This document shows, piece after piece, positions 49,421 through 59,780 of a DNA stretch of 64,000 nt (position 1 is the first letter of the stretch; every line of letters starts with the position of its first letter). The notes under the pieces were generated by a model. It made no database searches and was not told where the DNA came from. It was given only the letters and a program-made list of their open reading frames with translations. The stretch lies in NCBI GenBank assembly GCA_963739465.1, contig CAVUAS010000005.1, positions 218,261 through 282,260 of the forward strand, written 5' to 3'. Both the position numbers and the translations under genes were made by a program. The DNA is from an uncultured Actinomycetota bacterium. Lineage in GTDB: Bacteria > Actinomycetota > Actinomycetes > Mycobacteriales > Pseudonocardiaceae.

Positions 49421-49705
49421 ATGTCATCGTCGACGCCGCCTCCGGACGAGCGGGAGGGGCTGCGGTTCTCACCGTGGAACCTCCTGCTCCTCCTGCCGTT
49501 CCTCATGCTCGTCACGCCGTGGTTCAACATGCTGGAGCCGCGTCTTTTCGGGATGCCCTACTTCTACTGGGTGCAGTTCGTGTGGGTCGTGGTCGGCGTC
49601 GTCTCGGTGGGCGTCGTCTACGTCAAGACCCGTGACGAAGTGAACCCGGACGCCCCCGGCGAGGACATCGACGTGGACGAGCTCGACGAGGGGACGCGGC
49701 GATGA
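49421..49705 (+). CDS. DUF3311 small membrane protein (symporter partner)
   Basis: PRLFGMPYFYWVQF; overlaps the symporter start. Confidence 0.85.
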   Translation: MSSSTPPPDEREGLRFSPWNLLLLLPFLMLVTPWFNMLEPRLFGMPYFYWVQFVWVVVGVVSVGVVYVKTRDEVNPDAPGEDIDVDELDEGTRR

Positions 49706-51366
49706 ACTGGGTGGAGCTCGTCGTCTTCGCGGTGCTCTTCCTCGTGGTGACGGTCATAGGCTTCCTGGCCGCCCGCTGGCAGCGCGGCGACACCCTCGAC
49801 CACCTCGACGAGTGGGGGCTCGGCGGGCGCAAGTTCGGATCGTGGATCACCTGGTTCCTCGTCGGCGGCGATCTGTACACGGCCTACACGTTCGTCGCCG
49901 TGCCCGCGCTGCTGTTCGGGGCGGGCGCGACCGGGTTCTTCGCCCTCCCATACACGGTGATCCTCTACCCGATGGTGTTCCTGCCGGTGCTGCGGCTCTG
50001 GTCGGTCTCGCGCGTGCACGGGTACGTCACGCCCGCCGACTTCGTCCGCGGCCGGTACGGCAGCTCGGTGCTCGCGCTCTTGGTCGCGATCACCGGGCTG
50101 GTCGCGACCATGCCCTATATCGCGCTGCAGCTGGTCGGCCTCGAGGCCGTGCTGCGCACGATGGGGCTCAACGCGAGCGGCTTCCTCGGCCACCTTCCGC
50201 TGCTGGTGGCGTTCGTCATCCTGGCCGTCTACACCTACCAGTCCGGCCTGCGCGCTCCGGCGTTGATCGCGTTCGTCAAGGACATCCTGATCTACCTGGT
50301 GATCCTGGTGGCGGTGTTCTACCTTCCCGCCAAGCTCGGCGGCTGGGACGTGATCTTCTCGGCGGCGCAGAAGAAGATGGCGACACCGAACCCGGCGACG
50401 GGCCAGCCCACCGGTTCGATCCTGCTGACGCCGAACAACCAGCTCCAATACATCACGCTGGCACTGGGCTCGGCGCTGGCGCTCTTCCTCTACCCGCACT
50501 CGGTCACCGGCGTGCTGGCCAGCCGTGGCCGCAACGTGATCAAGCGCAACATGGTCGCGCTTCCGGCGTACTCGTTCCTGCTGGGTCTGCTCGCGCTGCT
50601 GGGCTACGTGGCGATCGCCGCGGGTGCCAAGCCGATCACCAACGGCGCCACCGGTCGTGCGGACGGCAACACGATCATTCCGGTGCTGTTCGACACGCAG
50701 TTCAACTCGCTGTTCGCGGGCGTCGCGTTCGCGGCCATCGGGATCGGCGCTCTGGTGCCCGCCGCGATCATGTCGATCGCCGCGGCCAACCTGTGGACAC
50801 GCAACATCTACAAGGAGTACCTCAAGCACGACGCCACGCCCGAGCAGGAGGCGCGGCAGTCCAAGCTCGCCTCGTTGGTCGTCAAGTTCGGGGCCGTGTT
50901 GTTCGTGCTGGCGATCGACCCGCAGTTCTCCATCGACCTGCAGCTCATCGGCGGCGTGATCATCCTGCAGACATTGCCCGCGGTGGCGATTGCTCTGTAT
51001 ACGCGCTGGCTGCACCGCTGGGCGCTGGTGGCGGGCTGGGTGGTCGGTTTGGGCTACGGGCTCTACCTCCTCTGGCTCATCCCCAACCCGGCGAGCGGCC
51101 GGGCGCACTTCGGCGGCTCGGCGCTCACGCTCGACAAGCTCACGCTGCTGGGCTGGCACCCGTTCGCCGGGTCGCCGGTGCAGGTCTACGTCGGCTTCGT
51201 CGCGCTGGTGCTCAACCTGGTCGTCGCGGTGCTGGTCACCCTGGCCTTGCGGGCGGGGCACGTGAGCGAGGGCGAGGACGCCACCCATCCGGCCGACTAC
51301 CACGCCGACGAGGGCTCCCCGCGGTTGCGCCCCGTAGCCCCCGCCGTGGCCGGAACTGCCGACTGA
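49702..51366 (+). CDS. Sodium:solute symporter, MctP-like monocarboxylate permease
   Basis: EWGLGGRKFG, GGDLYTAYTF, ATMPYIALQL, PAAIMSIAAANL; multiple TM helices. Confidence 0.9.
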   Translation: MNWVELVVFAVLFLVVTVIGFLAARWQRGDTLDHLDEWGLGGRKFGSWITWFLVGGDLYTAYTFVAVPALLFGAGATGFFALPYTVILYPMVFLPVLRLWSVSRVHGYVTPADFVRGRYGSSVLALLVAITGLVATMPYIALQLVGLEAVLRTMGLNASGFLGHLPLLVAFVILAVYTYQSGLRAPALIAFVKDILIYLVILVAVFYLPAKLGGWDVIFSAAQKKMATPNPATGQPTGSILLTPNNQLQYITLALGSALALFLYPHSVTGVLASRGRNVIKRNMVALPAYSFLLGLLALLGYVAIAAGAKPITNGATGRADGNTIIPVLFDTQFNSLFAGVAFAAIGIGALVPAAIMSIAAANLWTRNIYKEYLKHDATPEQEARQSKLASLVVKFGAVLFVLAIDPQFSIDLQLIGGVIILQTLPAVAIALYTRWLHRWALVAGWVVGLGYGLYLLWLIPNPASGRAHFGGSALTLDKLTLLGWHPFAGSPVQVYVGFVALVLNLVVAVLVTLALRAGHVSEGEDATHPADYHADEGSPRLRPVAPAVAGTAD

Positions 51367-51430: not shown

Positions 51431-51620
51431 TGTCCGCACCGTGTTCGCCCGTGCGTGATCGTGTCCTCACTCGACGGAGTGGCCGACCGGCGCCGGGGGT
51501 GACCATCTCGGCGTCCGGCCGTTGCCCGGTAGCCCGATCGGCGTGCAACATTCTGTCGACTGTCGCGATACGAAGGGTGACCGTCGCCGTGACGTGGTGA
51601 CGGCGACGGGAGGTGACCAG

Positions 51621-53492
51621 GTGTTGCAGGGCCCGGACGACAGCGCCGCCGACGGGGCCGACGATCTCGCCGTATTCGTCGAACGCCTCGCCGCGGCAGG
51701 CTCGGATGCCGCCACCGCGAAGGCCAGGGAGCAGATCCGGCGCTCGATCGCGGCCGCCGCCGTGCCGCCCGGCCTGCGCCACCTCGCCGAGGCGTTGGCC
51801 GCCACCCTCACCGAGACCCCCGCGCCACGCAAGCCCGCCGAGGACGCCGCGACCGTCGTCGCCGCGATGCGCGTCTCGCCGCTCGCGATCCTTCAGGACT
51901 TCGACCCGTCCGCGGTCGCCGGAGCCGTGGCCACCCTCGTCGGCGACGGCCGCCGCTTGCTCGTCACCGCCGCCACCGCCGACGAGCTGGCCGCCGTCCG
52001 TGCGGTGCTGCGGCCCGACGTCGCCGACCGCGGGCTCGACACCCTCCCCGACCTCACGCCTGCGGAGCTGCGCGAGCTGCGCAGGCTCCTCGTCACCGGC
52101 ACGCCCGAGCGCGCGGCCCGCGCCAACCAACAGCTGCCCCCCGCCGACCGGGTGCCGCACCCCCGCGAGGTCGCCGCCCTGTGCGGGCAGGCGGAGCACA
52201 CCGCCCCGCCCGGCCCGGCCGCCGCCATGGTGCCCGAACTGCTGGCCGGGATCGATCGGACGCGGCGCGAGGCCGTCACCTCCGTCGCGCGCTACGTGCA
52301 CCGGTCACTGCGGGCGATGTACCCGCGCGCCGATCGCCAGTGGGCGTGGGACCTGCTCGGCGAGCTCATCTACTCCCGCCACCGGCCCGCCTTCGACCAG
52401 CTGCTCGAGGACACCGCCCAGGCCGTCGGCGCCTTGGAGCGGGCCCGGCACCTGCCGTCCGTCGCCGTGGTGGCACCCGTGCCCGCGGGCGCGCTGTCGA
52501 TCCTGCGCCGCTACGGCGAGTTCCTCTTCGGCGGCGGCCGCGCCCGGGCCTACCTGCGCGCGCCCGCCGAACGCCGCGACGCCCTGCCCGTTCTCCGCCT
52601 GCTGCGGGTCGACGGGCGGCCGCCGCAGACCGCCGAGGACGTGCGGCGCGGCGTCGAGCACCTGGAGCTCGGCGAGCGGCTCTCGCACATCGACCTCGGC
52701 TGCGCCGCTGTCGGCATCCCCGCGCCCCGCGACGAGCGGGAGCTCCAGGAGCTGGCCGACGGGCTGGTCCGGGTGGCCGCCGCGGCCCGCTCGGTCGGGG
52801 CGCTGCGCCACGACGTGCTCTTCCTCGCTGACGACTCCCCGCTCGCCGTGCCCGACGTCGACACGGCCGAGCAGGTGGCCGCGGCCATCCTGCACTACGC
52901 CGAGCACGGACCGCATGCCGATGCGGGCCGCCGTCTGGACCGCATGGCCGACGAGCTCGCCGCCGCCTGCCCCACCCTCGTGCCGACCGCCGAGCACGAG
53001 GCCGCCGTCCGGGCTCTTCGGGCGCACGACGCCACGGCCTACGCCGCCGCCGTCGAGACGCTCGGCGCCGCCCGACGGCAGGCCCAGGACGCGCGGCGAC
53101 AGATCGCGCTGCTCGACCGGCTGCAGGCGGGCGCCCCACGGCTGGCCGCGGCATGGATCGAGCTCGCCGCACGCGACCCCGCCGCGCTCGGCTTCGTCTG
53201 CATGCGGCCGATCGAGGCGCTCCTCACCGCGATGCCGGAGGCCGACACCGCCGACGTCGTCATGGTGCTCGGCGCGCACCGGCTCGGCGTCGAGCGGCTA
53301 CTGGTGGCCGCCGCGGCGCCGCGGCTCATCGTCGTCGTGCCGCCCGGCGCGGAACGGCAGCAGACCCCCACGGCGCTCAGCGTGCTGGAGCGGGCCGCTG
53401 CACCGGTGATCCGTGGCCGGGCCGCGACCGAGCGCAACGTCGTCCCGATCGGGCCCCGCCCGAAGCCCCGTCCGGACATCACGGTCGCCTGA
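51621..53492 (+). CDS. Degenerate superfamily-1 helicase-like protein
   Basis: GRRLLVTAAT and ADVVMVLGAH...APRLIVV resemble SF1 motifs Ia, II and III; GKT and DE are absent. Confidence 0.55.
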   Translation: MLQGPDDSAADGADDLAVFVERLAAAGSDAATAKAREQIRRSIAAAAVPPGLRHLAEALAATLTETPAPRKPAEDAATVVAAMRVSPLAILQDFDPSAVAGAVATLVGDGRRLLVTAATADELAAVRAVLRPDVADRGLDTLPDLTPAELRELRRLLVTGTPERAARANQQLPPADRVPHPREVAALCGQAEHTAPPGPAAAMVPELLAGIDRTRREAVTSVARYVHRSLRAMYPRADRQWAWDLLGELIYSRHRPAFDQLLEDTAQAVGALERARHLPSVAVVAPVPAGALSILRRYGEFLFGGGRARAYLRAPAERRDALPVLRLLRVDGRPPQTAEDVRRGVEHLELGERLSHIDLGCAAVGIPAPRDERELQELADGLVRVAAAARSVGALRHDVLFLADDSPLAVPDVDTAEQVAAAILHYAEHGPHADAGRRLDRMADELAAACPTLVPTAEHEAAVRALRAHDATAYAAAVETLGAARRQAQDARRQIALLDRLQAGAPRLAAAWIELAARDPAALGFVCMRPIEALLTAMPEADTADVVMVLGAHRLGVERLLVAAAAPRLIVVVPPGAERQQTPTALSVLERAAAPVIRGRAATERNVVPIGPRPKPRPDITVA

Positions 53493-53723
53493 CGCACCGT
53501 CACCGGGCGACCACGGTTGATCACCCGATCGGACGACAACCATTTCGGGTCTTATTGCCGGGTCGGAGTGTCGTCTCGGAATGTCGGATCGCGGAGCTAT
53601 TAACGCCAGGTTACTGAGCCGACTCGGTGAAAGCCGGCAATCGGTGAAACGGAGACCGTGCGGCAAGCGATAACTAGATGTGCGTCGCCTCGACGGCGCG
53701 CCATCGGAAAGAAAGGATTCACC

Positions 53724-53894
53724 ATGCACCCCTGCGTGATTCACCACCCCGGTCCGCGTCCCAAGCCCACTCCTCCCCCTCCCCACCACGGCGGCGGTCC
53801 GAGGCACGATGACGACCCCTGCAAGCGTCACCTGAAGAAGCACCACCACCGGAATCACCACCACAGGCCGCAGCCCAAGCACCACCACTGCTGA
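53724..53894 (+). CDS. 56-aa His/Pro/Cys-rich peptide
   Basis: AAAGGA RBS; 16 His and 3 Cys, including a C-terminal Cys. Confidence 0.7.
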   Translation: MHPCVIHHPGPRPKPTPPPPHHGGGPRHDDDPCKRHLKKHHHRNHHHRPQPKHHHC

Positions 53895-53904
53895 CACGGC
53901 GGTA

Positions 53905-53940
53905 AAGGCTTCGCTCCCGCGCTCGCGGGAGCGAAGCCTT
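53905..53940 (+). terminator. Perfect 16-bp stem-loop between the peptide and transporter genes
   Basis: AAGGCTTCGCTCCCGC-GCTC-GCGGGAGCGAAGCCTT. Confidence 0.8.
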
Positions 53941-53956
53941 CGGGGGACGGAGGCCG

Positions 53957-56542
53957 ATGACCGAAACCGCCGACGGCGACAATTCGGCGTTGGCCGAGCA
54001 CGCACCGCAGGTCCGGATCCGCACGATGTTTTCGCGGTTCTGGCCCGACACCCGCCCGTTCCGCGGCCGGATGTTCCTGAGCCTACTGCTCGTCCCCGTC
54101 TCGCCCGCTCTCGTCACGGCGAGCGTCTACCTGTTCAAGGTGCTGGTAGACGACGTGCTCACCCCGCACGACTACCACCTGTTCGTGCCGGTGGCGCTGG
54201 CCTACGTGGGCCTCACCGTGGTCGGCGGGGTGGTGAGCTTCGTCGACGAGTACCTCACCGCTTGGGTGGGTGAACGATTTGTCACGTCGCTGCGGATACG
54301 GCTCTTTGCGCATCTGCAGCGGCTGTCCGTCGGCTGGTTCGAACGACGACAGCTCGGCGACATCATCTCCCGCTTGACCGGCGACATCGCCGCCATCGAA
54401 CAACTGGTGCTCACCGGCGTCAACATGACGCTGACCTATACGTTCCAGCTGCTGTTCTTCGCGGGCACGATGTTTCTGCTGAACTGGCAGCTGACGTTGA
54501 CGTCGTTTGTTGCCGCGCCCGCATTCCTGCTGTTGTCGCGCGCATTTTCCCGGCGAATCCAGAGCGCGTCACGTGAGCGTCGGCGACGTTCCGGCTCTAT
54601 CACTTCGGTGGCCGAGGAAAACCTCGGAAACATCCCGCTCGTACAAGCGTACGACCGCGCTGACCACGAGGTGGAGCGCTTCGCCGAAGAGAACCGGGCC
54701 GCCTTCTCGGCGCAGATGCTGGCCATCCGACTCGAGGCGTTGTTCGGGCCGTTCAGCAGCGTTGTCGAGTGCATCGGCGTGCTCACGGTGATGGCGGTTG
54801 CCATCTATGAGCTCGCCCAAGGCGCGATCACCCTCGGCGGTCTCCTGGCCTTCCTGGCGTACCTGAGCCAGCTCTACGGGCCCGTCCAGGGCTTCGCCGG
54901 GCTCTCGAACATGGTGTTCGCCGCGTCGGCGAGCGCCGAGCGGATCATCGAGATGCTCGACGCGGATCCGGCCGTCGCCGAGCTGGAGCAGCCGCGCAGG
55001 CTGGACCGCGCCACCGGGGCGATCTGCTTCGAGAAGGTCTGGTTCACCTACGAGGGAACGGAACGACCCGCCCTGCGCGGGGTGGACCTGCGGTTCGCGC
55101 CCGGTCGCAAGATCGCGATCGTCGGGGCGAGCGGCGCCGGGAAGTCGACGTTGACGAAGCTCCTGCTGCGCAGCTACGACCCCGACCGCGGGCGCGTCAC
55201 CCTCGACGGGCGTGACCTGCGCTCGCTGTCCCTCTCCGACCTGCGCCGCAACATCAGCGCGGTGCTGCAGGAAACCCTCGTGTTCGACGGCACCGTCGCG
55301 GAGAACATCCGGTGGGGCAAGCCGGACGCCACCGACGCCGAGGTGCGCGCCGCCGCCGAAGCCGCCGACGCGCACGAGTTCATCACGCGGCTCGACGACG
55401 GCTACGACACCCGGGTCGGTCAGCGCGGCAGGCTGCTCTCCGGCGGCCAGCGCCAGCGCCTGGCCATTGCCCGCGCCATGATCCGCGACGCGCCGGTGCT
55501 GCTCCTCGACGAGCCGACCACTGGGCTGGATGCCGTGTCCGGGCGGCGGGTGCTCGCGCCGCTCCGCAGGCTGATGGCCGGTCGCACCACGATCATCATT
55601 TCGCACGACCTGCTCACGGTGACCGACGCCGACGAGATCGTCGTCCTCGAGGCGGGCGCCGTCAGCGCGGTCGGTACGCACGAGCGACTGCTGATCACGT
55701 CGCCGACCTACGCACAGCTCTACGCGCTCCATCACCCGTCCGCGCGGGCGGCGGCGACCCCCGCAGGTGCCGCGGCGGCGCCGCGCCCGCGGCCCGCCCC
55801 GCCTGCCCACCGTGCCCCCCGCCTGTCTGCTCCGCCGACGGCCCCGCCTCCTGCGGGGCGCCCCGTCCGGCGGGGTGTGCTCGCCGCGATGGTGGACGTC
55901 GCGACCACGCCGATCCGGATGGTCCGGCCCGCGGGGCCGCCCCGACCCCGTCCGCAGGCGCCCGCGCCGCCGCTGCCGTCAACCCCGCCGCGGCCCCTTC
56001 CGCACGCCGCCGCCGCGACCCCACCTACGCCGCCGCTGTCGTCCACGCCCCCGCGGCCCCTTCCGCGCGCCGCCGCCGCGACCCCACCTACGCCGCCGCT
56101 GTCGTGCCCGCCCCCGCGGCCCCTTGCACACGCCGCCGCGCCGATGCCGCCCAACCCGCCGCTGTCGTCCGCGTCGTCCGCCGCGTCGCTGTCGTCCGGG
56201 CCGTCCATCCCGCAGGCGTCCACCCCGCCGCCACCGTCCACCCCACCACCGACGCCGCCGATCTTCCCGTTCGCGCTCGCCACGACGCCGCTGCCGGTGG
56301 TCACGCGCGGCCGACACGCGCTTTCGCGGCCGCCCGCCGCCGAGCCGACGGCCGGGGCCGCCGTTCCCCCGCCGCACGACCGGCCTCCCCATTCCGCCGT
56401 CGAGACGCCCCCGGCCGTGCCGCCACCGCGCACCACTGCGTCCCACGCGGTCGGTTCCGCGCCGGTGACGGCCCCCGGCATCGCCCGCCCCCTGCCCGAC
56501 CCGCGAGCGCGCCACGAAGCCTTCGCAGGCCTCCCCGAGTAG
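53957..56542 (+). CDS. ABC exporter (TMD-NBD fusion) with long Pro-rich tail
   Basis: GASGAGKST, LSGGQRQRLAIARA, LLLDEPT; about 270-aa low-complexity tail. Confidence 0.93.
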   Translation: MTETADGDNSALAEHAPQVRIRTMFSRFWPDTRPFRGRMFLSLLLVPVSPALVTASVYLFKVLVDDVLTPHDYHLFVPVALAYVGLTVVGGVVSFVDEYLTAWVGERFVTSLRIRLFAHLQRLSVGWFERRQLGDIISRLTGDIAAIEQLVLTGVNMTLTYTFQLLFFAGTMFLLNWQLTLTSFVAAPAFLLLSRAFSRRIQSASRERRRRSGSITSVAEENLGNIPLVQAYDRADHEVERFAEENRAAFSAQMLAIRLEALFGPFSSVVECIGVLTVMAVAIYELAQGAITLGGLLAFLAYLSQLYGPVQGFAGLSNMVFAASASAERIIEMLDADPAVAELEQPRRLDRATGAICFEKVWFTYEGTERPALRGVDLRFAPGRKIAIVGASGAGKSTLTKLLLRSYDPDRGRVTLDGRDLRSLSLSDLRRNISAVLQETLVFDGTVAENIRWGKPDATDAEVRAAAEAADAHEFITRLDDGYDTRVGQRGRLLSGGQRQRLAIARAMIRDAPVLLLDEPTTGLDAVSGRRVLAPLRRLMAGRTTIIISHDLLTVTDADEIVVLEAGAVSAVGTHERLLITSPTYAQLYALHHPSARAAATPAGAAAAPRPRPAPPAHRAPRLSAPPTAPPPAGRPVRRGVLAAMVDVATTPIRMVRPAGPPRPRPQAPAPPLPSTPPRPLPHAAAATPPTPPLSSTPPRPLPRAAAATPPTPPLSCPPPRPLAHAAAPMPPNPPLSSASSAASLSSGPSIPQASTPPPPSTPPPTPPIFPFALATTPLPVVTRGRHALSRPPAAEPTAGAAVPPPHDRPPHSAVETPPAVPPPRTTASHAVGSAPVTAPGIARPLPDPRARHEAFAGLPE

Positions 56543-56720
56543 GCCGAGTGCGGTGTCCACCGACGTCCGCCGAGCCGCTCGCACGCCCAGACGACGACTC
56601 GCGGCGTTGCCGCCCTCGCGAATACGCCCGGTATGAGCTTCGGGCGGCGCCTTGCGAGTCGCCGCCTGCATCACGCGATCGACCCGGCAACGTTCGTGGA
56701 CACCGCACTAGTCTCAGGGC

Positions 56721-57305
56721 ATGGGCAGCACGCACGAGGTCAGCCGGTTCGGGCACGTCGAGCTCGCGGACATGCCCGACGACCTGCGGGAACGGATCGG
56801 CGTCATCGCGGAGAGGTCCGGCTTCGTGCCGAACGTGTTCCGCGCGCTGGCCCGCCGCCCCCGGGAGCTGCGGGCGTTCCTGGACTACCACGACGCGCTG
56901 ATGGACTCGGACGACGGCCTGTCGAAGGCCGAGCGCGAACTCGTCGTCGTCGCGACGTCCGGGGCCAACCACTGCACGTACTGCGTGGTCGCGCACGGGG
57001 CGATCCTGCGGGTGCGCACCAAGGACCCGGAGATCGCCGACCGGGTCGCCACCAATCCCTACGGCGTCGAGCTGTCCCGGCGAGAGCGCGCGATCGTCGA
57101 CCTCGCGCTGCTGATCGCGATGGAGTCGGCGTCGCTCACCGGCGCCGAGCTGGACGACGCGCGCGCCGCGGGCCTCACCGACGACGAGATCTGGGACATC
57201 GGCGCGATCACCGCGCTGTTCGCGATGTCCAACCGCCTAGCGCACCTCACGGCGCTGCGGCCCAACCCGGAGTTCTTCCTGATGGGGCGCACACCGCGCG
57301 GATGA
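56721..57305 (+). CDS. Peroxidase-related enzyme (AhpD/carboxymuconolactone decarboxylase family)
   Basis: GFVPNVF, ERELVVVATSGANHCTYCVVAHGA, FAMSNRLA. Confidence 0.9.
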   Translation: MGSTHEVSRFGHVELADMPDDLRERIGVIAERSGFVPNVFRALARRPRELRAFLDYHDALMDSDDGLSKAERELVVVATSGANHCTYCVVAHGAILRVRTKDPEIADRVATNPYGVELSRRERAIVDLALLIAMESASLTGAELDDARAAGLTDDEIWDIGAITALFAMSNRLAHLTALRPNPEFFLMGRTPRG

Positions 57306-57306
57306 G

Positions 57307-57939
57307 TCACGGGCAGCCGCCGCCGCTGTCGGTGGCACCACAGCCGCTCGACGAGCGGAACGGTTCCGCCGTTGACGGCGGCTTCGACGTGGGCGCAGGC
57401 TTCGTTGTCGCGGTCGGAGTCGTCGCGGTCGGAGTCGCCGGGGGCCGCGTCGACGGTGGCCGTGCGACCGGCCTCGACGTGGGCTGGGACGCCTCCCGAG
57501 GAGCGGGCGCCGAGGTCACCGCCGCTCCCGCCTCGCAGCCGACGCCGTTGTGGTCGGCGTCGAGGCCGTACACGTCCTTGCCGACGACCAGCACCGGCCC
57601 CGTCACGTAGGACGGGCCGTTGCCCGAGCCGCCCGCGCAGTCGACGTCGACCGGGTCGTCGGGCACGCACGGTGTGTAGTTGCGGTTGCAGCCGTTCTGC
57701 GCGACGTTCCGCGGCGGCACGTCATCGGCCTGAGCGACCGCCGGGCCGGGTGCGCCCCCGCCCACCGCCGAGGGTCCCGCCGCCACCTCGTCGACACCCG
57801 GCGACGTGCTCGTGACAACTCGTGTCGCCACTGCCGCTTCGTTCCGGGCGGGATTGTCGGCGTAGCCACTCTGAGCTGCGGGTACGCCGCACGCGACGAG
57901 CAACGCGGCGGGCCCGACGGCGAGCAGTACGCGGATCAC
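57307..57939 (-). CDS. Lipoprotein with Cys-rich, Excalibur-like Ca-binding domain
   Basis: LLVAC lipobox; CNRNYTPCVP.D..DVDCAGGSGNGP...DVYGLDAD.NGVGCE. Confidence 0.75.
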   Translation of the reverse strand: MIRVLLAVGPAALLVACGVPAAQSGYADNPARNEAAVATRVVTSTSPGVDEVAAGPSAVGGGAPGPAVAQADDVPPRNVAQNGCNRNYTPCVPDDPVDVDCAGGSGNGPSYVTGPVLVVGKDVYGLDADHNGVGCEAGAAVTSAPAPREASQPTSRPVARPPSTRPPATPTATTPTATTKPAPTSKPPSTAEPFRSSSGCGATDSGGGCP

Positions 57940-58053
57940 ACTCCGTGCATCGCCGAGACCTGCTGCCGTGTTGCACACCATCGAGTGAGGCGAGGGTTCC
58001 CGTTGCAACACGTCGAACATCTGCGGGTAACGCCTCATCGCGACGATCTACCC

Positions 58054-59142
58054 ATGTCAAACCTATTCGGACGCCGGGCGGCGATCGTCTCCTATCGACT
58101 CGGCGGGGCCGACGGGGTGTCGGTCACCGCAGGCCAATGGGTGTGCGCGCTCCGCAAATTGGGCATGCGGGTGCGCACGGTCGCGGGTGGCGGCAGGCCG
58201 GACGTGCTGGTTCGCGGCCTGGCGCTGGAGTCGAGGCGCCCGCCGTCGCGGCGGGAGCTGGCGCGCGCGCTGGGCGACGCCGACCTCGTCGTCGCCGACA
58301 ACATCTGCTCGCTGCCGATGAACCACGCCGTCGGCGAGGCGCTCGCGGACTACCTGCGCGGCAGGCCCGCCGTGCTGCGCCACCACGACCTGCCGTGGGA
58401 ACGCCCCCGATACGCCCACCTCACGAGCTGGCCGCCCGACGATCCGGCCTGGTGGCACGTCACGATCAACGAGCTCGCCCGCCACGCGCTCGCCGCCCGC
58501 CGCGGCATCGCCGCCACCACGATCTACCACGGCTTCGCCGAGCGCCCCCACCCCGAGCAGCGCGGGGCTGTCCGGCGACGGCTCAAGGTGCCCGACGCCC
58601 CGCTGGTGCTGCAGCCGACGCGGGCGATCGCGCGCAAGGGCATCGACGTCGGGCTCGCCCTCACCGCGGCCCTCGGCGGCACGTACTGGCTCACCGGCCC
58701 GGCCGAAGACGGCTATCAGGCCGAGCTCGACGCGCTCCTCGCGGGCGGCGGCGTGCCCTACCGACGACGGTTGCCGTTCGGCGTCCGGATGGCCGCCGCC
58801 TACGCCGCGTGCGACGTCGTCGCGATGCCCTCGTCGTGGGAGGGGTTCGGGCTGCCGCTGATCGAGGCCGCGCTGCACCGGCGCCCGGTCGCGGTCGGGG
58901 CGTTCCCGGTGGCGCAGGAGCTTGCCCGGTTCGGCTTCCGCTGGTTCGACGCCCGCGACCCCGGCCCGCTGCGGGCCCACCTCGCCGACCCCGATCCCGC
59001 GCTGGCCGCCCACAACGAGGCGATCGCGCACGCGCATTTCGGCATCGACGCGCTCGCCCGCCGCCTGGAGCTGCTGCTCTCCGGCGCGCCGATGTGCGCC
59101 CACTCCGGCGGGGAAGCGGTGTGCGCCTGCCTCACCGCCTGA
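58054..59142 (+). CDS. Glycosyltransferase family 4
   Basis: GGADGVSV, HHDLPWER, QPTRAIARKGI, PSSWEGFGLPLIEA. Confidence 0.88.
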   Translation: MSNLFGRRAAIVSYRLGGADGVSVTAGQWVCALRKLGMRVRTVAGGGRPDVLVRGLALESRRPPSRRELARALGDADLVVADNICSLPMNHAVGEALADYLRGRPAVLRHHDLPWERPRYAHLTSWPPDDPAWWHVTINELARHALAARRGIAATTIYHGFAERPHPEQRGAVRRRLKVPDAPLVLQPTRAIARKGIDVGLALTAALGGTYWLTGPAEDGYQAELDALLAGGGVPYRRRLPFGVRMAAAYAACDVVAMPSSWEGFGLPLIEAALHRRPVAVGAFPVAQELARFGFRWFDARDPGPLRAHLADPDPALAAHNEAIAHAHFGIDALARRLELLLSGAPMCAHSGGEAVCACLTA

Positions 59143-59147
59143 CCGGG

Positions 59148-59191
59148 TCGTGAGTGGAAAACGTCGCCATGGCGACGTTTTCCACTCACGA
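59148..59191. repeat. REP-like palindrome, copy 5 (perfect)
   Basis: TCGTGAGTGGAAAACGTCGCCATGGCGACGTTTTCCACTCACGA. Confidence 0.9.
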
Positions 59192-59198
59192 TGGCGGC

Positions 59199-59780
59199 GT
59201 GCCCCTGCCGAACCGCGTCGACCCCTACGGGGCGCTGCACGCCCTGTCGGAGCGGGGGCGCTTCACCGGCAACCGCGGCTGCCTCGTCGACGACGCGGGC
59301 CACTTCGTCCGCCACCACCGCGGCACACTGTGGATCACCTGCCGGACCAGGTTCCGCGGGCGGCGCGTCGGGCTCACCCGGCCGCGCCGGTGGACGCCGC
59401 TGTTCTTCCTCGACGACGCCGTGGCGCTGGCCGCCGGGCACCGGCCGTGTGGGGAGTGCAGGCACGCCGACTACCTCGCCTACCGCGAGGGCGTCGCGGC
59501 CGCGGCGGGCACGCCGATGCGCGCGGACGAGCTGAACCGACGGCTGGCCGCGGAGCGCGGCGCGCACGGGCGCCGCACGTGGACCGGCACCGACCTCCCC
59601 GACGGCACGGTCGTGATCACCGACGGGCCTCGCCTCGTCCGCGGCGACCTGCTGTACGCGTTCGCCTTCGCGGGCTGGCGCGACCCCGTCGCGCGCCCGA
59701 CCGGGCCGCTCACCGTGCTCACCCCGCCGACGTCCGTCGCGGCACTGCGCCACGGCTTCGTCCCGGACCTCGCCGCCTAG
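59199..59780 (+). CDS. Conserved hypothetical protein with Ada-like RPCxxC motif
   Basis: [37 protein letters not shown]. Confidence 0.75.

Follow-up and report, generated by a model that had tools for sequence, protein, structure and literature searches.

A conserved cassette of a small-peptide gene, a hairpin and an ABC pump in Pseudonocardia and other Actinomycetes

We analysed a 64,000-nucleotide (nt) stretch of contig CAVUAS010000005.1 from an uncultured member of the Pseudonocardiaceae (the window; positions follow its numbering, and all elements listed lie on the + strand). It carries a 56-codon open reading frame (ORF) for a micropeptide rich in His, Cys, Pro and Lys, followed by a GC-rich hairpin and the gene of an ATP-binding cassette (ABC) exporter. 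This peptide-hairpin-pump cassette is conserved and not a product of chance. The 56-codon ORF is a real gene and belongs to an unannotated small-peptide family of Actinomycetes. The function that we favour, at about an even chance on the sequence evidence, is that the pump would export a leaderless, unmodified cationic peptide, with the hairpin keeping the peptide mRNA in excess.

The peptide gene extends from an ATG at 53724 to a TGA ending at 53894. A Shine-Dalgarno sequence read from the DNA (AAAGGA, 53712-53717) lies 6 nt before the ATG, and GC content by codon position (0.74/0.47/0.81) is coding-like. The translation, MHPCVIHHPGPRPKPTPPPPHHGGGPRHDDDPCKRHLKKHHHRNHHHRPQPKHHHC, has 56 amino acids (aa), including 16 His (29%), 13 Pro and 3 Cys (5%); it contains an acidic DDD patch and a polyproline run (TPPPPHH) and ends in HHHC, so that Cys is the last residue. 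The initial annotation had described a 56-aa ORF with a good ribosome-binding site (RBS), 16 His, 3 Cys and a terminal Cys, and each of these features was confirmed. The peptide has a net charge of +7 before its 16 His are counted, an N-terminal hydrophobic patch (CVI-HHPG) and a conserved core (HDDDPCKRHLKKHHH), and no CxC or CxxC motif. AlphaFold2 placed a helix at residues 32-45 (PCKRHLKKHHHRNH; pTM 0.23) and found no fold in the remainder.

The hairpin (53905-53940; arms 53905-53920 and 53925-53940, with a 4-nt loop) starts ten bases past the peptide stop and lies between that stop and the RBS of the pump gene. It has 16 perfect pairs by direct reading and 15 by RNAfold. The 71-nt stretch 53890-53960 folded at -40.3 kcal/mol (z = -3.4), and 0 of 200 shuffled sequences folded equally well. 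No U-tract follows the hairpin in the window. In the relative G011, a compensatory T>C / A>G change retains pairing. The Shine-Dalgarno sequence of the pump gene (ACGGAGG, 53947-53953, read from the sequence) is outside and 3′ of the hairpin, a GGAG is found 3′ of the hairpin in most loci, and the pump ATG (53957) lies exactly 16 nt past the hairpin. The perfect 16-bp hairpin and the exporter 16 nt further on were thus as the initial annotation had placed them.

Searches with the peptide itself returned very little. A tblastn search of its own genome and 60 relatives found a single relative, G011 (67% identity), in which the flanking genes, RBS, frame (despite indels), stop position, hairpin and pump start are the same. 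A word-indexed search of 5.8 billion proteins gave no match, and a profile of His-type peptides retrieved only six metagenomic "hypothetical proteins" from 5.8 billion predicted proteins. Because direct peptide searches are nearly blind, the family was surveyed with the pump core as query and not with the peptide. Pump homologues were present in 66 of 137 Pseudonocardia genomes (54-97% identity), including the cultured carriers P. sulfidoxydans NBRC 16205, P. benzenivorans JCM 12694 and P. acaciae DSM 45401, as well as strain N23 and numerous metagenome-assembled genomes from soil; in 44 of 301 Pseudonocardiaceae genomes (55-61% identity; 9 of 56 genera, Saccharopolyspora among them, with the cultured S. 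spinosa NRRL 18395); and in 24 of 401 genomes of the class (42-56% identity; 11 of 164 sampled Actinomycetes genera).

Nearly every Pseudonocardia pump was preceded by a strongly RBS-equipped ORF of 36-61 codons and then a GC-rich hairpin. An automatic rule detected small ORF, hairpin and pump together in 49 of the 64 non-redundant family loci, and inspection by hand raised this number to at least 60; at class level the count was 16 of 24 loci. Orthologues in five genomes (G151, G141, G011, G119 and G146) and in more distant clades keep the RBS, the frame and a stop ahead of the hairpin, and the sequence (A)AAGGA before the peptide gene is kept across nearly all Pseudonocardia loci. None of the ten paralogous type-IV ABC exporters of the same genome had an upstream small ORF and hairpin, indicating that the layout is not generic to such exporters. 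The synteny test proposed in the initial annotation for a unit of peptide, hairpin and exporter therefore gave a positive result, in dozens of genomes. A full-text literature search found no description of a peptide-hairpin-pump cassette; one candidate paper was unrelated.

The hairpin is a conserved part of this layout, with a median energy of -35 kcal/mol across loci. It begins a median of 16 nt after the peptide stop (range 5-73), a T-rich tail follows it in 1 of 49 loci, and the pump start lies a median of 18 nt behind it. This distance leaves no room for a separate pump promoter, so the hairpin is not a complete terminator. It would act as a partial terminator or as a protector of the mRNA 3′ end, leaving peptide mRNA in excess. 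An excess of precursor mRNA had been suggested from the layout in the window, and the finding that the hairpin is not a full stop, with ~18 nt to the pump start codon, fits that suggestion.

The peptides of the family are ~32-72 aa long, hydrophilic, low-complexity and cationic, with a charged body that evolves fast. In Pseudonocardia the bodies are rich in His, Cys, Lys and Asp. Elsewhere they consist of Gly-Trp(-His) repeats (e.g. MQIKDTFK...GWGWGSGWGWG...GWGC), or are Arg-rich (e.g. MARSGLFAALQPAR...RRRRRRRR...), Lys/Pro-rich, Arg/Trp/Cys-rich (e.g. MGAFVGIKPAWGGRCRRRSSRCRSWRRCCHRWTWTCWR of Saccharopolyspora rosea) or Tyr/Gly-rich. Three features hold statistically across the family: the N-terminal patch, the positive charge and a Cys near the C-terminus. 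Among 72 unique peptides, the share of Phe, Ile, Leu, Val and Met was 26% at positions 2-12 vs 3% elsewhere. The shared patch is short and hydrophobic, roughly Phi-x-x-Phi-x-P-(A/G)-(K/R) (Phi, hydrophobic residue), and a motif of the Phi-x-Phi-x-P type was found in 34 of the 72, against an expectation of 3.5 and a maximum of 9 across 1000 shuffles. Of the 72 peptides, 71 carried a positive net charge (median +6.5). With additions that brought the sample to 77 peptides, 49 had a Cys among their three final residues, whereas 2000 shuffles gave an expectation of 9.8 and a maximum of 19. All 18 His-type peptides have the C-terminal Cys in an H-C context, and their alignment revealed a common core, DD.C.R..KKHHH. 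No peptide class had a match in Pfam or NCBIfam.

Substitution patterns suggest that the peptide is under purifying selection in the window's clade. Its ratio of nonsynonymous to synonymous rates (dN/dS) was 0.17-0.39 in that clade and 0.1-0.9 overall, with one pair at 1.36; these values are approximate, being derived from protein-guided alignments of low-complexity peptides. The corresponding values for the pump were 0.09-0.14 and 0.04-0.24, and within the window's clade the peptide evolves at 4-5 times the rate of the pump.

The pump gene (53957-56542) encodes 861 aa. Its core (53957-55750) is an ABC half-transporter with a six-helix type-IV membrane domain and a nucleotide-binding domain (Pfam ABC_membrane, 4e-50; ABC_tran, 1e-34). 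It is a generic half-transporter of the MsbA/ABCB-like kind and presumably works as a homodimer. The top NCBIfam match was MsbA (TIGR02203), at 473 bits vs a cutoff of 602, and all 25 NCBIfam matches listed were below their cutoffs. Matches in the Protein Data Bank included ABCB1, MsbA, TmrAB and Sav1866. The core is followed by a Pro/Ala-rich C-terminal tail of ~260 aa (55751-56542), with no in-frame stop before 56542 and with a 63-bp (21-aa) tandem repeat in 3.3 copies at 55965-56170. In the orthologues, too, the open frames are long, and they vary widely in length (600-1600 aa from stop to stop). Ahead of the first membrane helix, the pump family has an N-terminal motif of its own, LVE.AP (ALAEHAPQVRI in the window, 53957-54020). 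Most His-type Pseudonocardia clades have an acidic N-terminal extension (net charge -1 to -10), whereas its charge is mixed elsewhere; in the P. benzenivorans / strain N23 group it contains His/Asp/Arg repeats.

A metagenomic lineage (15 contigs; loci L192-L195) keeps the leader, an intact related peptide ORF (4001-4168 of L192) and the hairpin, without the pump. Homology to pump-bearing loci ends at the 3′ end of the hairpin. The neighbours of the peptide gene in this lineage encode CadD, DinB_2, a Fur-family regulator with a catalase-peroxidase (fur-katG) and MntP. The other three metagenomic relatives checked had the pump. Since the leader, ORF and hairpin remain intact in the pump-less lineage, the peptide is not merely a leader of the pump.

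In the favoured scheme, the peptide gene would be transcribed from its own promoter, which in Pseudonocardia may be an extracytoplasmic function (ECF)-like GTGAAAC-N17-CGAT element, to give a short message ending at the very stable hairpin. The half-transporter would be expressed as well wherever polymerase passes the hairpin or a longer transcript is spared cleavage, so that the cell would make much peptide and little pump. The pump would most likely recognise the N-terminal patch and export the peptide intact, with neither cleavage nor modification; leaderless bacteriocins and phenol-soluble modulins are exported in this way. For the Pseudonocardia branch, to which the window belongs, the exported product may be a metal-binding, histatin-like polycation. 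We infer the transcription start, the attenuation, the export and the extracellular role, whether antimicrobial, metal capture or other, from sequence.

Leaderless class IId bacteriocins (aureocin A53, lacticin Q) and the staphylococcal phenol-soluble modulins with Pmt are small, cationic, unmodified peptides that have no cleavable leader and are encoded beside a dedicated ABC exporter, which secretes the peptide and protects the producer. The present cassette shares with them a cationic peptide without modification enzymes and an adjacent ABC exporter, found here in at least 60 of 64 loci. Unlike the cassette peptides, which are hydrophobic only at residues 2-12, those peptides form amphipathic, hydrophobic-cored helices; there is no detectable sequence relationship, and Pmt is of the ABC-2 type, whereas the window pump is an ABCB/MsbA-type half-transporter. 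The order of structural gene, hairpin and transporter is similar to that of lantibiotic and bacteriocin operons such as nisA-nisB, in which the stem-loop behind the short structural gene lets only a small share of transcripts run on into the export genes, so that precursor mRNA is in surplus. Those operons differ in having modification and immunity genes and a leader protease, and most of the cassette hairpins have no U-tract. In composition the peptide bodies (His/Lys, Gly-Trp-His repeats and Arg/Trp/Cys) resemble eukaryotic low-complexity antimicrobial peptides, namely histatins (His-rich), shepherins (Gly/His), indolicidin and tritrpticin (Trp/Arg), and protegrin and tachyplesin (Arg/Cys); the cassette is bacterial, with putative ABC export in place of the secretory pathway. 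The systems of HMT1, which exports phytochelatin-Cd, and of the Atm1-type exporters also combine an ABCB-type half-transporter with a thiol- or imidazole-rich metal-chelating peptide. The metal link is putative in the cassette, and phytochelatins are made enzymatically from glutathione, whereas the cassette peptide is gene-encoded.

Several observations weigh against export of an unmodified peptide by the pump. As hydrophilic, disordered polycations, the peptides differ from the known leaderless bacteriocins. The window peptide has no Sec or Tat signal, double-glycine leader or other recognisable cleavable leader that would mark it as cargo, and the Pfam domains of the pump are ABC_membrane and ABC_tran only, with no C39 peptidase domain. 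When the acidic, basic and aromatic residues of the pump membrane domain were counted in bulk and compared with peptide class, no clear signal emerged, and phylogeny confounds this comparison. The pump-less copy indicates that the peptide can persist without an adjacent exporter, which fits an intracellular role too, and the dN/dS values carry the uncertainty of the alignments noted above. However, the conserved patch at the N-terminus might itself serve as a signal or as a tag that is cleaved off.

We assign a low probability to an intracellular role in which the peptide buffers or stores metal, as does Hpn or as the His/Cys tails of nickel chaperones do, and in which the pump exports a metal-peptide complex, much as HMT1 exports phytochelatin-Cd, or does something else. 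The His share, the three Cys, the DDD patch and the HHHC end of the window peptide agree with such a role, as do the His/Cys/Asp-rich bodies throughout the Pseudonocardia branch, where the C-terminal H-C is invariant, and the N-terminal extension of the pump, which is acidic and in some clades His/Asp-rich. The CadD, Fur-KatG and MntP genes beside the pump-less copy lend some support to an intracellular, metal- or redox-linked role for the His-type branch, and to the metal-storage alternative of the initial annotation. However, in other genera the homologous pumps are accompanied by Gly-Trp, Arg, Lys/Pro or Tyr peptides, which offer few metal ligands. Neither a metal regulator nor an operator nor a metal gene recurs next to the 64 loci, and none lies near the window cassette. 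It is also hard to see what the conserved hydrophobic patch at the N-terminus would contribute to storage. The Helicobacter pylori proteins Hpn and Hpn-like store nickel, and SlyD, HspA, UreE and CooJ have His/Cys-rich tails. These are like the window peptide in composition only, being short, disordered and His-dominated, with few Cys and with acidic residues, and the SlyD end (...CGCH) resembles the ...HC(G/R/H) end of cassette peptides. They differ in being cytoplasmic, not strongly cationic and without a linked exporter or homology, and sister clades of the cassette are not His-rich. Bacterial metallothioneins (SmtA, MymT) are also different, having Cys-dominated clusters with the CxC/CxxC motifs that the window peptide lacks. 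Since the bodies in other genera are so different, His-richness is not a defining feature of the family, and metal chelation is at most a specialisation of the Pseudonocardia branch, in which metal binding is chemically likely. The metal-chelating reading of the initial annotation would apply, at most, to this branch.

Less probable again is that the small ORF is a regulatory upstream ORF whose translation, perhaps with stalling at PPPP or at the His runs, would set how often polymerase passes the hairpin and thereby how much pump is made, while the peptide itself would be functionless. The order of ORF, hairpin and gene, the lack of a separate pump promoter, the TPPPPHH run and the faster evolution of the peptide would all be expected of such a leader. 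However, the stop-to-hairpin spacing is variable, the pump RBS is outside the hairpin, and there is no U-tract and no alternative antiterminator pairing was noticed. In addition, dN/dS is below 1, features of the N- and C-termini are conserved, up to 30% Trp or 16 His would be costly for a mere leader, and the ORF is intact in the pump-less lineage. Known leaders are also different: hisL-type attenuators have a short leader whose regulatory codons are clustered, alternative terminator and antiterminator stems, a U-tract and a biosynthetic operon behind them, whereas the window has a 56-codon ORF with His spread throughout, a single hairpin without a U-tract and a downstream exporter. SecM, MifM and VemP sequester the downstream RBS in a stem that opens when a ribosome stalls, whereas the pump RBS is free of the hairpin. 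We consider it improbable to a still greater degree that the peptide is the precursor of a ribosomally synthesised and post-translationally modified peptide (RiPP), with modifying enzymes encoded elsewhere or, in some clades, represented by a kinase-like gene after the pump. A conserved N-terminal motif with a hypervariable body resembles a leader/core arrangement, the near-C-terminal Cys is conserved, and nine loci of other clades have a Hanks-kinase-like ORF 3′ of the pump. Against this, neither the window's clade nor most of the 64 loci have a conserved enzyme gene beside the cassette, a C39 peptidase domain is absent from the pump, and the AhpD-like gene downstream in the window reflects local synteny only. 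The initial annotation had pointed out that no canonical RiPP maturase is adjacent, which holds for the 64 loci, beside which none is conserved; its suggestion of a RiPP-like system was not borne out. The comparative data already contradict a chance ORF in GC-rich intergenic DNA with the hairpin as terminator of the upstream gene, a reading with hardly any probability. The absence of the peptide from the 5.8-billion-protein collection and the single relative found by tblastn in 60 genomes would suit it, but many genera, with pumps of 42-97% identity, share the frame, RBS, stop position and composition; dN/dS is under 1, and 230 nt separate the end of the upstream gene from the ORF.

The favoured scheme of export by the pump includes a promoter, and the region upstream of the peptide gene contains candidate elements. 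No sigma-70 consensus promoter was found in 53400-54100. A promoter-like region at 53626-53675 comprises GGTGAAA (53626-53632), GTGAAAC (53644-53650; -35-like), a 17-nt spacer and CGATAACT (53668-53675; -10-like). Most Pseudonocardia loci have the pattern GAAAC-N16-17-CGA(T/A) at a set distance upstream of the peptide ATG (-74 to -89). The GTGAAAC-N17-CGAT region resembles an ECF-sigma promoter and may serve as a lead; this resemblance refers to TGAAAC-N16-CGTA and GTAACG-N16-CGAT, which we take to be ECF promoter types. The motif had 4 matches in the 7.5-Mb genome, about the level expected by chance, and a regulon is therefore not definable from it. Two GGTGAAA boxes (53626-53632 and 53644-53650), with starts 18 nt apart, lie upstream of the -10-like element and are kept in the closest clades. 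A comparable double TGAAAC arrangement was seen once elsewhere in the genome (contig C7, ~445542, minus strand).

Further upstream, a conserved 24-nt element, TGATCACCCGATCGGACGACAACC (53518-53541), lies ~180 nt before the peptide ATG and is identical in genomes G000 and G011. Related elements (TTCACCCGATCAGCGGCCAACC) were found in other Pseudonocardia clades and at the pump-less locus L192. The element could be an operator or an upstream promoter element. The 5′ end of the peptide mRNA may form a stem-loop (53677-53705), which folds at -16.7 kcal/mol. Equivalent segments of eight loci gave z values of -1.4 to -3.7 relative to shuffled sequences, and 6 of the 8 folded better than the shuffles. 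RNAalifold analysis of 11 leaders yielded 4 pairs only, with a weak covariation term; because of this weak covariation, we call the stem-loop possible despite the single-sequence folds. In the RPVSWHHK peptide subfamily (L039, L040, L042, L044 and L192), 2-3 small tandem hairpins (GGACCTCGCTCCCCGAGGT) precede the RBS, whereas the window has a single stem. An Rfam search of 52500-58500 (E <= 1) revealed no riboswitch or known RNA.

When the ORFs that flank the cassette in the 64 loci were clustered, the pump alone proved to be conserved. The gene downstream of the pump (56721-57305) encodes an AhpD-like, peroxidase-related CxxC protein (CMD; TIGR01926, 190 bits vs a cutoff of 82; HCTYC motif). 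The initial annotation was correct in placing this gene downstream on the same strand. An AhpD-like/CMD gene follows the pump in the six closest loci only, where the whole neighbourhood is syntenic; it was therefore rejected as a cassette partner and is regarded as a neighbour, not a part of the unit. No metal, regulator or sigma-factor gene was identified among the neighbours in the window. The ORFs at 51522-53492, 49702-51366, 57822-59153 and 59154-59780 had no Pfam match, and that at 51522-53492 had no NCBIfam match either.

The Hanks-kinase-like ORF occurs 3′ of the pump in loci L055, L059, L061, L064, L065, L068, L104, L106 and L108, which include Saccharopolyspora spinosa, and is absent from the window. 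The full-length Saccharopolyspora copy (L106) contains HLDLKPGN...YMAPE by direct reading; a Pfam search with a 106-aa fragment of the kinase-like ORF gave no match. This protein might phosphorylate the Ser-rich peptides of those nine loci. From the leader through the peptide gene to the middle of the pump gene (53500-54900), GC content is 0.60-0.67, vs ~0.77 in the flanks. This drop, together with the differing genomic contexts among Pseudonocardia clades, suggests that the cassette moves over evolutionary time.

A bolder version of the export scheme, which we advance with little confidence, is that the N-terminal patch is an unrecognised, uncleaved export tag for a clade of ABCB-type half-transporters. 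These pumps would secrete "programmable" disordered polycations whose bodies (His/Cys, Gly-Trp, Arg or Tyr) are swapped in evolution. In Pseudonocardia, the product might then be a secreted metal chelator, or a gene-encoded counterpart of phytochelatin that leaves the cell bound to metal. If such a minimal export tag for an ABC pump exists at the N-terminus, it would be useful as a tool for secretion.

Gene callers mostly miss these peptides because they are short and of low complexity, and RiPP rules of the antiSMASH type would probably miss the cassette because no enzyme gene is nearby. Families of this kind are revealed by searching with the conserved partner gene and not with the peptide. 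If the peptides are secreted, the bacterial group that already supplies most antibiotics would also have a large, unannotated store of cationic peptides that are made ribosomally and left unmodified. Their compositions mirror several classes of eukaryotic host-defence peptides, which would make synthesis and testing straightforward. A secreted or pumped His/Cys peptide, if confirmed, would be a new route of Ni, Zn or Cu handling for soil actinomycetes.

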